Origin: Candidatus Zymogenaceae bacterium
GTDB taxonomy: Bacteria > Desulfobacterota > Zymogenia > Zymogenales > Zymogenaceae
Direction of reading: 5' to 3'
Length of the DNA stretch: 64,000 bases
Assembly (NCBI GenBank): GCA_016931225.1
Contig: JAFGFE010000040.1
Location: 67,149-131,148, forward strand
Shown here piece after piece: positions 5,781 through 13,540 of the stretch. The first letter of the stretch is position 1. Each line of letters opens with the position of its first letter. The notes under the pieces are model-generated. The model did no database searches. It had not been told where the DNA came from and saw only the letters and a list, made by a program, of their open reading frames with translations. The translations under genes and the position numbers were made by a program.

Positions 5781-7142
5781 TTAAAAAAACCAGTCCCCTT
5801 CGGCGTGGGAAAGGGAGGGGTTGTCTCCGTCGGACAGCCAGAAGGTGCTCACTCCGGACGTACCGGCAGAGCTGCTCCAGGAGATCGTGGTGATAATTGT
5901 ATCCTCCGTCTGATCAATACTCACAAATGACCAGGTAATCCTCAAAAAATCGGCGGTTTCAAAGTATTCCCGCACCATATCTATAAGACCATACCGACTG
6001 CCGCCGATGCCGCTGTAGGAAAAATCGATCAGACCCGAAAGAGCCGTCGTATCACCCTCCTCCACGGCGTCTATGAAGTCCTCCAGAAACGATCGGGCGA
6101 TCCTCGAGACGTCTCTCCTTTCAATCGGAGGCCCCGGCTCCCCTTCGAAGGAAGAGTTCGGGCGCTTTTCGCTCCCCCGAAAGGTCTCGGTGCCCTCTCT
6201 CTCCCCCCCGGTGGGGATATCGGGCATATCTCCCGGAGATCCCAGGGCGATCGGCCCAGGCGAGAAGGATTCCCCGCCCTCGAACACCAGTTCCGCGGTC
6301 CAGGATCCCTCCTCGCCTTCGACGGGAATCGTCCCCCCTTCACCTGTGAAAATCGAAACGCCGCTTCCGGCGGTCCTTCCGGAAAGAATAACCCGACCAT
6401 CATCCCCAATGACGATCCGATCGATAACCGCATCGATCGACGCATCCATCGGGCGCACGGCGACCGTCAGCACAATCGAATCTTCCCCTGAATCCGGGGA
6501 CGCCTCCCGGGAGAACGATACGTTCCCCGCGGTGTCCGCCCCAAACGTCATCTCGATGGTACCGGGATGCTCCACCGACACCGTCATGATCCCGTCCCCT
6601 CCGCTCCAATCGACGCCGACGGCTTCGGTCTCCGGGACGTACTCCACCGCCGCGGAGAAGGCGCGCCCGTCGCCTTTAGATGCGAGGCGGAGGCCGGGCG
6701 CCGCGAGGGTGATCTCGCTTTCGTACCGGTCGGATGCGGGAGCGGTTATGTCCACCCTCCCCTGGGTAAGAATCACCGCCGTCACCGCCGTTTCCTCCCC
6801 GTCCCGGGTCACCACAGAAAGCTCCTCTATCTCCACCCCGCTCATGGGAGACAGAGTGATGAGGGTGTCGTCCTTGCACTTCAGGGAAACCTCACCGTCC
6901 GGCCCGGTGAATACGCGGTCGGCGTCCCGCACCCTCTCCATGCGAAAGAGCTCTCTCCAGATATTCTCTCCAGCATAGTTCACCTTGACAGAGCCGGAAA
7001 GCTCCACGGCTCGGGCCGGAACGGACCGGGATTCCTCTCCCAAGGAGGAAAAACCGGCGACGAAACACACCATAACAAAAAGCGCCGCCCCCACGGTCGT
7101 CTTTAAAAATCTCCGCGTCGTTATGATACGTATCATGTTCAA
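5781..7142 (-). CDS. FecR-domain signal-anchored periplasmic protein, cassette A. It has no cytoplasmic anti-sigma domain and carries a C-terminal conserved domain ending in GDWFF.
   Basis: N-terminal 'MNMIRIITTRRFLKTTVGAALFVMVCFVAGFSS' is a signal anchor. A FecR-like segment follows: 'LSGSVKVNYAGENIWRELFRMERVRDADRVFTGPDGEVSLKCKDDTLITL'. The C-terminal domain matches the paralogue at 9464..10747. The gene overlaps the upstream beta-barrel gene by 4 bp. Confidence 0.7.
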   Translation of the reverse strand: MNMIRIITTRRFLKTTVGAALFVMVCFVAGFSSLGEESRSVPARAVELSGSVKVNYAGENIWRELFRMERVRDADRVFTGPDGEVSLKCKDDTLITLSPMSGVEIEELSVVTRDGEETAVTAVILTQGRVDITAPASDRYESEITLAAPGLRLASKGDGRAFSAAVEYVPETEAVGVDWSGGDGIMTVSVEHPGTIEMTFGADTAGNVSFSREASPDSGEDSIVLTVAVRPMDASIDAVIDRIVIGDDGRVILSGRTAGSGVSIFTGEGGTIPVEGEEGSWTAELVFEGGESFSPGPIALGSPGDMPDIPTGGEREGTETFRGSEKRPNSSFEGEPGPPIERRDVSRIARSFLEDFIDAVEEGDTTALSGLIDFSYSGIGGSRYGLIDMVREYFETADFLRITWSFVSIDQTEDTIITTISWSSSAGTSGVSTFWLSDGDNPSLSHAEGDWFF

Positions 7143-11857: not shown

Positions 11858-13540
11858 TTAGAACTCCATGTTGAATGACATCATACCGATCTTTTCGCCA
11901 TAACGACCCGAACCGTCGCTGGTCCATGTGTGGTTCGCAGTGTATTCCAGGGCGATCGATGCCGTCAGATCCCTTCGTTTCACCAGCACTTTGGTCAACC
12001 TTAATACCATTTCTCCATCCCGAACATTCGCCTTTTCCCCGTAATCCCATACAGTACCGGAGCATTCGATCTCTAATGTCATTTCGCGGGGGTACAATCT
12101 GCGGAAGACCACCTCTCCACCAAAGCTCGCTCCCAGTTCAAAATCGTTTACTGTGTTTGTTGAATTCGGCCAAAGGCGGGTTTTGTACTCCATATTCATC
12201 CCACACCCTATTTTATAATCGAGGCCGAATGCCGTGTTTTTATAGCTCCATGAGCAATTCACATCGTGTGTCTCTGAATCGATGCCGTCGGACAGGTGGT
12301 TCAGAATCTGTTCATATGTATATATGACTTCATAATCGGTGTGCTCCAGATCATAGCCGGCGGTGAGAATCAGGGTCAAGGTTTCCTTGTTGACGCTCTT
12401 GGGGTCATTCGTGTCACTTTCATCGTGATAGTAAATATCGAGCATAGCTGTAAAGTCCGAATCGGGATCGATGAAATGTGGAATCTCGCATTGAATTACC
12501 AATCCGAAATCTGTATGATAGACGGAATAGGAGTCAGACGGGGCATCGGCCGGTCCGGTGCGGTACAGACGATAGTAGCTCATGCAAAGCCATCGATCCG
12601 ATGGTTGATAGCCAAAAGCCACCGCCGCCATCTTTCGCATGATGACACTCGTGCCCATTGTCGAAACAAAACCGGGCTCCACATATTCACCGCGAAGCAT
12701 TATCCCGAGCTCATTCCTGAGAGGCTCAAAGTAGAAGTTCGCCCAAAGGGCCGTATCCCGAACCGTCTCCGAGCGGGGATTACGCATGTCGTCAAGGTAG
12801 AAGCTCATCGCCATCTCACCATCCAGCACCAGCCGTTCATTATGGAAAGAAAGCGTCCCATCAACAGAGAACACATCATTTCGATACGCTGTTTCGTCGG
12901 AATCATAATAGAGCTTGGTAATCTCCGTGTGAACATACGACGCCCCCAGCTTCAGCCGGGGGTCGGCAATGACGTAAAGCCGCACGCCGCCGAAGGCCCG
13001 TACGTATCTGTCTACGGTGCTGTCCCGGTTGACGCCCCCCAGGAGCATCAGCTTCGATCCCGCCGGGTTGCTGTACTCCCCCTTGATTCCTAAAAAGGAG
13101 TTTTGGAAAATGTGATTAGTAAACGTTGCGGATATCTTTCCCAGGTCCAGGAACCATCTCTCGCCACTGACTTTAAGGTTTCCCGACGGGATGTCGAAAT
13201 GTTTATTTCTGGTCATCAGGATTTTGTCGTCGGTGTGTCTGAAACTAACACCCCCGGTAACTGATAAACCGCCGTCTGTTTTGTGATTGAGTTTGAGATC
13301 CAGTGTCTCATTATACAGGACATTCCACTTCCGGTCGTCGTCCACGTCCAGAGTGGTTTCCGCGGCGTCTCCGTAGATCCGCTGGGCTTTGACATCCATG
13401 CGATAGACGGTATCGATCCCGCCGCCGTCCCAGTCGACGGCGTATGAGCGGTATGAGTGTCCGGAAATGATGGTCAGAACAGCCGCCAGAATCGCGATGC
13501 ATGTGCGTATGGCATATGATCGGTTCATTGCCTGCCTCAC
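11858..13540 (-). CDS. Outer-membrane beta-barrel protein, cassette B, paralogue of 7139..8794.
   Basis: Signal peptide, then 'AVDWDGGGIDTVYRMDVKAQRIYG...'. The C-terminal residue is aromatic ('MSFNMEF'). It is collinear with and similar to the cassette A protein. Confidence 0.65.
   Translation of the reverse strand: MRQAMNRSYAIRTCIAILAAVLTIISGHSYRSYAVDWDGGGIDTVYRMDVKAQRIYGDAAETTLDVDDDRKWNVLYNETLDLKLNHKTDGGLSVTGGVSFRHTDDKILMTRNKHFDIPSGNLKVSGERWFLDLGKISATFTNHIFQNSFLGIKGEYSNPAGSKLMLLGGVNRDSTVDRYVRAFGGVRLYVIADPRLKLGASYVHTEITKLYYDSDETAYRNDVFSVDGTLSFHNERLVLDGEMAMSFYLDDMRNPRSETVRDTALWANFYFEPLRNELGIMLRGEYVEPGFVSTMGTSVIMRKMAAVAFGYQPSDRWLCMSYYRLYRTGPADAPSDSYSVYHTDFGLVIQCEIPHFIDPDSDFTAMLDIYYHDESDTNDPKSVNKETLTLILTAGYDLEHTDYEVIYTYEQILNHLSDGIDSETHDVNCSWSYKNTAFGLDYKIGCGMNMEYKTRLWPNSTNTVNDFELGASFGGEVVFRRLYPREMTLEIECSGTVWDYGEKANVRDGEMVLRLTKVLVKRRDLTASIALEYTANHTWTSDGSGRYGEKIGMMSFNMEF

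Follow-up and report, generated by a model that had tools for sequence, protein, structure and literature searches.

A large outer-membrane beta-barrel encoded beside FecR-like and NTF2-like secreted proteins: a candidate envelope module in a Zymogenaceae bacterium

Two tandem cassettes on the minus strand of a 64,000-nucleotide (nt) stretch of Candidatus Zymogenaceae bacterium DNA (contig JAFGFE010000040.1; the whole stretch is hereafter called the window) each combine a gene for a predicted large outer-membrane (OM) beta-barrel with one or two downstream genes for exported partner proteins. All five open reading frames (ORFs), namely barrel A and partner A of cassette A, and barrel B with partners B1 and B2 of cassette B, are present (Table 1). 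An earlier note, made from the letters of this DNA alone, had described them as a pair fitting neither the FecIRA nor the SusC paradigm, and the features of both paradigms are indeed absent. The pairing is kept in very distant relatives, which makes it likely, to judge from sequence comparison, that this is a genuine envelope machine, as yet uncharacterised. Among the ways in which it could work we favour, at a probability of about 0.4, a plug-and-barrel or gate arrangement, with the NTF2-like domain of the partner as the part that would bind the barrel, a reading drawn from sequence, predicted structures and analogy.

When the neighbourhoods of homologues were compared, as the earlier note had proposed, a gene for a secreted protein was found directly after the barrel gene and in the same orientation at 10 of 11 independent loci, and 9 of these 10 downstream genes are of FecR type, NTF2 type or both. 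The pairing persists to barrels with profile E-values of 1e-10 to 1e-14 in unrelated genomic contexts, the neighbours of the pair differing at every distant locus (housekeeping, lipopolysaccharide (LPS), thiolase, GH116 and surface-protein genes). That note had also named a characterised barrel family, together with an adjacency lost in other genomes, as the outcome that would undo its proposal; neither was found, the adjacency being kept in distant homologues. In L008 the barrel (32% identical) lies among housekeeping genes and precedes a 461-amino-acid (aa) FecR-like and NTF2 partner ending in HAEGDAFF. L009 (barrel P0017) has a 380-aa FecR and NTF2 partner, and L010 (barrel P0019) has two tandem partners composed of a signal peptide, FecR (E=1e-13), Ig-like, NTF2 and an extra domain. 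At L011 (barrel P0023) the partner is a protein of 158 aa with a signal peptide and an NTF2-like domain only, ending in HAEGDWFF. Partners of about 350 aa with Ig-like and NTF2-like domains follow the barrels of L012 (P0026, WP_068543847.1 of Thermodesulfatator autotrophicus, whose downstream gene encodes 354 aa), L013 (P0077, with more than one such partner) and L014 (P0027). A 468-aa FecR protein (FecR E=3.5e-10) follows P0030 in L015, and a 921-aa FecR protein (E=1.3e-8) and then an NTF2-like lipoprotein of 158 aa follow P0034 in L016. Downstream of the P0020 barrel, by 16 nt, is an unannotated 626-aa gene, the one of the ten not assigned to either type.

With an NTF2-type profile, the L013 partner was matched at 3e-7 and L012, L013d2 and L016d2 at about 1e-4, while matches were marginal for L014 (0.03) and L015d2 (0.05). 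FecR is absent from the L011-L014 partners, and in L016 the NTF2-like domain is a separate polypeptide. Judged by these architectures, the NTF2-like domain recurs most constantly among the partners, with FecR as an optional addition. A metagenome scan with the partner motif returned two known contigs and one new locus, L019, whereas an alignment search with the NTF2 domain returned the L011 protein only, from 519 word-index candidates, and is uninformative on distribution.

Partners A and B2 correspond in their signal sequence and N-terminal beta domain, and also in a C-terminal domain of about 115 aa that is 56% identical between them and ends in G(D/E)WFF. The three-part layout described in the earlier note therefore holds for A and B2 and fails for B1, which lacks the C-terminal domain and resembles the other partners over its N-terminal half only (29% identity, E=4e-20). 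In partner A, a FecR-like region (about residues 38-158) and a beta-sandwich middle region (about 160-299) are followed by the NTF2-like domain (337-451), which ends in HAEGDWFF. In the AlphaFold2 model of this protein, a beta-rich N-terminal part leads into a beta-sandwich, and a disordered linker (about 295-342) then connects to three helices followed by four strands; the predicted local distance difference test (pLDDT) score is 53.9 overall and 60-78 in the folded parts. The C-terminal domain is thus predicted to form the alpha+beta cone of the NTF2-like fold, with three helices on a curved sheet, which supports what had been offered as a mere possibility. It has invariant Tyr, Trp and His positions and the motif HAEGDW. 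No curated NTF2 family of Pfam or NCBIfam reached its threshold on the window proteins. Set against the NTF2-like superfamily (SnoaL_3, DUF4440 and CaMKII-association-domain-like proteins), the signature HAEGDW(F/L)(F/L) and the fusion to FecR or Ig modules behind a signal peptide are specific to the present group of partners.

The FecR-like label was less direct to secure. Pfam FecR gives partner A an E-value of 0.043 (14.7 bits against a cutoff of 24). A hidden Markov model (HMM) built from window-type partners only matched L010 (2e-9 and 8e-8) and L015 (1.6e-5) in the very regions that Pfam calls FecR above its cutoff (1.3e-13 and 3.5e-10), which supports the label and the earlier assignment transitively. 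Partner B1 was matched by the local FecR-type HMM at E=9.5e-35, being one of its seed members, and by the window-only HMM at E=7e-18.

In the partners a signal sequence of about 30 aa stands at the very N-terminus, which leaves no room for a cytoplasmic anti-sigma domain. By inspection, partner orthologues have xxA-type cleavage sites past the hydrophobic stretch, and distant partners have textbook signal peptides with the sites VIA|E, AGA|A and AQA|F. With signal-peptidase-I sites in both groups, the partners are probably soluble secreted proteins with a cleaved signal peptide rather than anchored ones; of the signal anchor proposed earlier, the signal sequence stands and the anchoring is doubtful. 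Two other readings of these termini were rejected. The window partners are not taken as lipoproteins, since the Cys in the hydrophobic region is not conserved and is absent from P0011 and P0013, nor is HAEGDWFF taken as a C-terminal sorting signal, since the motif is internal in L010 and L019, where an extra domain of about 120 aa follows the NTF2-like domain.

The closest familiar setting for such a partner is that of the FecR/PupR anti-sigma factors. The N-terminal beta domain of the partners is probably homologous to the periplasmic FecR domain (PF04773) and is likewise encoded beside an OM barrel. FecR/PupR systems, however, comprise a cytoplasmic anti-sigma domain, an extracytoplasmic function (ECF) sigma factor and a TonB-dependent transducer, all of which the window pair lacks, and the order here is barrel then partner, tightly coupled. 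That the pair is a degenerate FecIRA-type cell-surface signalling system is a reading we regard as effectively refuted. It would account for the FecR-like domain, and an ECF sigma factor gene does lie about 2.5 kb downstream of the pair in L013. Yet the anti-sigma domain is missing from the partners, the barrel has neither a plug nor an STN domain nor a TonB box, the L011-L014 partners do without FecR, and an ECF sigma factor is lacking from the window region and from most other loci. Among the flanking genes scanned in the window (101 to 23116), no ECF sigma factor or Sigma70_r2/r4 protein was found, so that the earlier statement that both the anti-sigma domain and an adjacent ECF factor are wanting is borne out for the window partners and their surroundings.

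Each barrel starts with an AXA-type signal peptide; the mature chain begins with VDWDGGGID and ends in NMEF, the two ends being as first described. The general marks of OM beta-barrels were found in them, namely a Sec signal peptide, amphipathic strands, a C-terminal aromatic beta-signal and a predicted closed-barrel fold. An alternating-hydrophobicity scan of a 51-sequence alignment gave an amphipathic beta signal along residues 30-550. In the AlphaFold2 model of barrel A, 26 strand elements are joined by loops of 2-19 residues without a plug or periplasmic domain; the mean pLDDT is 59.5, rising to 75-85 over residues 110-345, and both the strand count and the open lumen are estimates from this low-confidence model. 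In this model the strands begin 7 residues past the signal peptide, which leaves no room for a plug. No N-terminal globular domain appears in the model and no Plug, STN or TonB_dep_Rec match was found in the barrels with Pfam, in agreement with the earlier reading that plug and TonB-box features are absent. By this estimate the barrel would be a large one, of about 24-28 strands, without a close solved relative.

The five cassette proteins have no above-threshold match in Pfam or NCBIfam, and barrel and partner profiles gave no meaningful match against all PDB sequences. Below threshold, Pfam returned for the barrels PagL (0.07) and OMP_b-brl (E=0.015, barrel B), and faint Porin_4 and OMP_b-brl matches recur in barrels and relatives. 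A word-indexed search of 5.8 billion proteins yielded six close relatives, all named "hypothetical", the source given being a Deltaproteobacteria metagenome-assembled genome, locus JW885_15770. When 1.84 billion cluster representatives were searched exhaustively with a HMMER profile, 58 proteins reached E<=1e-3 and 19 reached E<=1e-10, the clusters being counted at 50% identity. Full-length relatives have 465-656 aa, nearly all with an aromatic end, usually Phe, and most with a recognisable signal peptide. Pfam matches among 51 barrel members are weak and scattered (OMP_b-brl in 5, SlpA_C in 4, DUF6029 in 4, Porin_4 in 3), and no OstA, LptD, MtrB_PioB, Omp85/TpsB, DUF560 or TPR match was found in the barrels. 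The HMM searches suggested earlier thus placed the window barrels in no named family. By sequence the barrel belongs to no curated family and is rare. A literature search found no description of a barrel paired with such FecR/NTF2 partners.

In the Foldseek comparison, Deinococcus SlpA ranked first (E=2e-4), and every TM-score was 0.43 or lower. The structural matches are to large barrels such as MtrB (423 residues aligned), FhuA, the FimD and PapC ushers, LptD and SlpA; Occ porins and OmpM1 are also among them, as are Wzi, PgaA and AlgE. Two of these directions deserve weighing. The barrel could be a distant porin of SlpA/OmpM type without the SLH stalk, its partner forming the periplasmic arm of a tether between OM and cell wall. 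Like SlpA (SlpA_C, PF21620) and OmpM, it is a large OM beta-barrel, SlpA gives the best Foldseek E-values, and the remote members P0034, P0040 and P0045 match SlpA_C, although only P0045 passes the cutoff (39.4 bits against 35, among 31 members scanned individually); P0034 also has a FecR partner. But SlpA_C matches neither the window barrels (at E<=1) nor their closest relatives, and the window barrels lack the SLH domain and coiled-coil stalk of SlpA and OmpM, with about 26 strands instead of 30 and TM-scores of at most 0.40. The NTF2 matches are generic to the fold, and no LysM, OmpA_C or SPOR peptidoglycan-binding domain was found in any partner scanned. We know of no FecR or NTF2 partner gene for SlpA or OmpM. 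One further point in favour of a tether is that the L019 partner adjoins an L,D-transpeptidase lipoprotein; on balance we consider the tether quite unlikely. In L019 (573-1691 and 1981-3711) the partner, whose NTF2 domain contains THAEGDWFI, is preceded by this lipoprotein with its YkuD L,D-transpeptidase motif (HG...SRGCIRM), a possible link between partners of this kind and peptidoglycan chemistry.

The second direction is a polysaccharide export porin related to DUF6029 or to plug-less barrels of Wzi/PgaA type. Four family members (L008, P0018, P0019 and P0024) have co-linear matches to DUF6029 (profile positions 133-317 of 538), Wzi, PgaA and AlgE are among the fold matches, and glycosyltransferase genes adjoin the pair in L013. 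DUF6029 (PF19494, about 538 positions) is of similar length to the window barrels, has no experimentally known function and has been tied to plug-less Wzi-like barrels near outer-membrane polysaccharide export (OPX) genes (PMC9603273). Nonetheless, all its matches are below the cutoff, at 15-20 bits against a gathering cutoff of 27 (P0024 best with 19.8, L008 17.0), the window barrels give no DUF6029 match with Pfam, the genes beside the pair in the window and the loci examined include no OPX/Wza, Wzc or synthase gene, and the partner protein would be left unexplained. This reading appears very improbable to us. As far as sequence profiles can place it, the barrel family occupies an unannotated space between DUF6029 and the SlpA_C-type large barrels.

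To our knowledge, well-studied barrels of at least 22 strands are all occluded, either by a plug domain of their own, as in TonB-dependent transporters and ushers, or by another protein, as LptD is by LptE and MtrB by MtrA. The barrels matched by fold (MtrB, FhuA, FimD, LptD and SlpA) all hold a plug or lumenal partner. This occlusion of wide barrels is what favours the plug-and-barrel or gate arrangement for the window pair. With about 26 strands, only short loops and nothing to plug it, the barrel by itself would form a channel both very wide and open. The partner would be exported by the Sec pathway from the tightly coupled downstream gene and would form a physical complex with the barrel; its NTF2-like domain may dock into or onto the periplasmic barrel mouth as a plug, a gate or a handle that holds the partner there, and the FecR or Ig modules would then extend from the barrel to do the work or the sensing. 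We infer both the contact between the two proteins and the role as plug or gate, as well as the substrate, from the gene pair, the predicted folds and the conserved pairing. The junctions of 1-2 nt and the promoter-like site and terminator-like hairpin of each cassette's own upstream region also speak for such a unit, as does the fact that each paralogous barrel retains its own diverged partner (54% identity between barrels A and B, 40% between partners A and B2).

The resemblance to LptD-LptE and MtrB-MtrA is one of plug-and-barrel analogy only, without sequence homology of the window pair to either. In contrast to LptD, the window barrels have no OstA match and no beta-jellyroll N-domain, and the partners, in contrast to LptE, have no conserved lipobox Cys and an NTF2-like fold. 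The MtrB_PioB match is likewise missing, and the partner is NTF2-like rather than a CXXCH cytochrome. A cytochrome conduit of MtrB type was rejected, as partners A, B1 and B2 contain no CXXCH heme motif. The module would thus work like barrels with dedicated partners but belongs to no named family, the testable defining features of FecIRA, TonB-dependent transporters, MtrB/PioB, LptDE, Slam, SlpA/OmpM and DUF6029 all being absent or below threshold.

Several observations weigh against the plug-and-barrel or gate arrangement. Both AlphaFold2 models (barrel A and partner A) are monomers and of low confidence, with mean pLDDT values of 59.5 and 53.9. The close relatives L001-L007 are syntenic throughout and hence give no independent support for the pairing, and in L019 an L010-type partner has no barrel within 1.9 kb upstream. 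Partner B1 is without the NTF2-like domain that would do the docking, and HAEGDWFF does not act as a C-terminal signal, a further domain following it in L010 and L019. Finally, two partners accompany one barrel in cassette B, L010 and L013, and several partners per barrel would fit multiple cargoes better than a 1:1 plug.

This last point leads to what we rank as the main rival, doubtful as it is, in which the barrel is a translocator that exports or displays its partner(s), the NTF2-like domain serving for targeting or retention and the FecR or Ig modules being the displayed part, in the manner of type 11 secretion (Slam) or two-partner secretion. In type 11 secretion, the barrel gene lies beside cargo genes with a conserved C-proximal domain. 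The window pair is alike in that its barrel gene adjoins one or more partners with a conserved C-proximal domain and variable N-terminal parts, and more than one partner is found per barrel in the three loci named above. The acidic, disordered and repeat-rich linkers are of a kind typically seen in exposed proteins, and genes for large surface proteins with Ig, PKD, fn3, BNR or beta-helix modules follow the pair in L010, L014 and L015. However, Slam is a 14-strand DUF560 barrel with a periplasmic TPR domain whose cargo domain is an 8-strand barrel, whereas the window barrel is unrelated in sequence to DUF560 or to Omp85/TpsB and the partner domain is an NTF2-like cone. Moreover, the bare 125-aa NTF2-like domain of L011 would be an odd sole cargo, and the module has no energy source or periplasmic chaperone. 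A wider formulation would cover both this rival and the gate: a two-component OM machine of Desulfobacterota, Thermodesulfobacteriota and allied uncultured lineages, in which a wide, plug-less barrel translocates, or is gated by, an NTF2-tagged partner and the NTF2-like cone is the barrel-recognition module. If so, the pair would represent either a secretion or display route of a new type or a further class of plug-and-barrel complex. Taken as a whole, this is a speculative proposal that we hold with still less assurance.

Very large secreted proteins (PKD, fn3, Big_7/BNR, beta-helix/PQQ) are encoded downstream of the pair in L014 (8720-13620) and L015 (3641-8169), and CARDB and OmpH/Skp genes come after it in L010 (6250-7372). 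These neighbours are hints that the module may serve surface-protein biogenesis.

The genes and signals of the two cassettes are collected in Table 1.

Table 1. Features of the two cassettes and their borders in the window.
Feature	Position	Strand	Description
M20 peptidase gene	13802-15064	-	upstream neighbour of cassette B
Sigma-70-like promoter, cassette B	13579..13608	-	TTGACA-18-TATGAT, 11/12 consensus matches; between M20 terminator hairpin and barrel B
Barrel B	11858..13540	-	ORF of 560 aa from GTG; signal peptide, all-beta chain, NMEF end
Partner B1	10993..11856	-	287 aa; signal sequence, FecR-like beta domain, start of middle domain; no NTF2-like domain
27-nt tandem repeat	10040..10202	-	6 copies; Tandem Repeats Finder score 191-229, 81% matches
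Partner B2	9464..10747	-	427 aa; signal sequence, FecR-like domain, repeat linker, NTF2-like domain ending HADGEWFF
Decayed M20 3' end	9241..9399	-	last 49 codons; tblastn 59% aa, E=6e-14; blastn 77% over 159 nt
Terminator-like hairpin copied with M20 remnant	9145..9162	-	resembles hairpin downstream of intact M20 gene
Sigma-70-like promoter, cassette A	8829..8858	-	TTGACA-18-CATAAT, 11/12 consensus matches
Barrel A	7139..8794	-	551 aa; cleavage AYA|VDW; C-terminal NMEF; about 26 predicted strands
Partner A	5781..7136	-	451 aa from ATG; signal sequence, then four regions
Terminator-like hairpin with T-run	5794..5816	-	possible end of cassette A transcript
PAS-rich hybrid histidine kinase gene	1496-5320	-	downstream of cassette A

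The ATG at 13528 within barrel B aligns with the start of barrel A. A spacer of 669 nt separates cassettes B and A, and one of 245 nt separates B1 from B2. Junction B reads TAA-A-ATG, the ATG of partner B1 lying 1 nt past the barrel B stop, as had been noted. Junction A had been described as a 4-bp ATGA overlap; it reads ...TTT TGA AC ATG, so that 2 nt separate the stop from the ATG at which the NCBI record (P0007, 451 aa) begins partner A, and it becomes a TTGA overlap if TTG is taken as the start of partner A. With a terminator-like hairpin and a promoter-like site before each barrel gene, the cassettes look like independent transcription units. A search for sigma-54 promoters (TGGCAC-N5-TTGC, up to 2 mismatches), prompted by a sigma-54 activator gene nearby, gave 34 matches against 44 expected, none of them upstream of either barrel. 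The hairpin at the end of cassette A is built from the codons of ...EGDWFF and the stop (GGGGACTGGTTTTTTTAA), with a similar arrangement around 9464-9480; in partner A, the conserved C-terminal protein motif and the transcript end may therefore overlap. The 27-nt repeat encodes the acidic, (G/A)(E/D)GSSSG(D/G)A-like linker of partner B2, rich in Gly, Ser, Asp and Glu, and has no counterpart in partner A. Its length may differ between strains.

The setting of the window cassettes bears on yet another explanation, an uptake channel with its binding protein. In the window (13802-23116, minus strand) and in L001-L005, a conserved run comprises genes for an aldehyde dehydrogenase (Aldedh), an amino-acid permease, a URO-D-like protein, a sigma-54 response regulator, DUF5058, an unannotated 245-aa protein and the M20 peptidase, and continues with the barrel cassette and a hybrid histidine kinase of 1274 aa with multiple PAS domains. 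Within this run, the genes for DUF5058, the 245-aa protein and the M20 peptidase have the look of an as yet uncharacterised unit for uptake and hydrolysis. The barrel might then be a porin for the adjacent catabolic genes (M20 peptidase, DUF5058, amino-acid permease), the pocket of the NTF2-like domain binding a small, perhaps hydrophobic, solute. NTF2 cones commonly bind small ligands, and the Tyr, Trp and His of this one are invariant. Consistent with such a role, the cassette directly follows the M20 gene of the DUF5058-245 aa-M20 group in the window and close relatives, the DUF5058-M20-cassette region lies between the sigma-54 response regulator and the PAS hybrid kinase, and faint Porin_4 and OMP_b-brl matches were seen. 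We nevertheless find it unlikely: the metabolic neighbours are not kept at the distant loci, which weakens the case, the cassette has its own promoter after a terminator, and a plug-less barrel of about 26 strands would be far larger than any known diffusion porin.

That the two cassettes are tandem paralogues, as first described, is borne out. Barrels A and B are paralogous over their full length, with 53-54% aa identity (BLASTP 53%, E=0) instead of the roughly 60% first given, and 67% nucleotide identity; partners A and B2 are 40% identical overall. No further paralogues of the cassette genes were found within the window. Upstream of cassette A lie a decayed remnant of the M20 gene and a copied terminator, which indicates that the duplicated unit began inside the M20 gene. 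Related contigs all carry a single A-type cassette in the same position, and just upstream of barrel A the sequence is 85% identical to the matching region of the relative L001. Cassette B falls outside the A-type orthologues as an outgroup, sharing 51-58% identity with them where they share 59-88% with one another, and its GC content at third codon positions is lower (0.54-0.61) than that of cassette A and the flanking genes (0.71-0.78). These comparisons suggest two possible origins for cassette B: an old paralogue that has been lost elsewhere, or a copy brought in at the homologous site by recombination with a lower-GC relative.

Two further observations concern the surroundings. A Moco riboswitch (molybdenum/tungsten cofactor; 23394-23523, minus strand, 67.6 bits, E=4e-14) precedes the aldehyde dehydrogenase gene (21494-23116), which heads a same-strand run of Aldedh, a 119-aa ORF, the amino-acid permease and the URO-D-like protein; it is unusual for an NAD-type aldehyde dehydrogenase to be encoded behind a Moco riboswitch. 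At the window edge, a 169-aa HNH endonuclease ORF (101-610, plus strand; Pfam HNH E=6e-12) adjoins an ICMT/PEMT-family methyltransferase gene (709-1359, minus strand), and this region could be a mobile-element remnant.

Barrels with a dedicated second protein carry out LPS insertion (LptDE), electron transfer (MtrAB), nutrient capture (SusCD) and surface export (Slam), each of them an important discovery in its time. The window pair follows the same genomic logic of coupling, deeply conserved pairing and co-divergence, with parts that are unrelated to any of these four. With 58 clusters, most of them from uncultured organisms, the family is small and its immediate impact limited; a copy is nevertheless present in the cultivable Thermodesulfatator autotrophicus, which makes the idea testable. 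If the complex proves true, a new architecture would join the list of partnered barrels, FecR-like and NTF2-like domains would gain a role beyond anti-sigma signalling and small-molecule enzymology, and "hypothetical proteins" of sulfate-reducer-related lineages, whose envelopes are poorly known, would receive an annotation.

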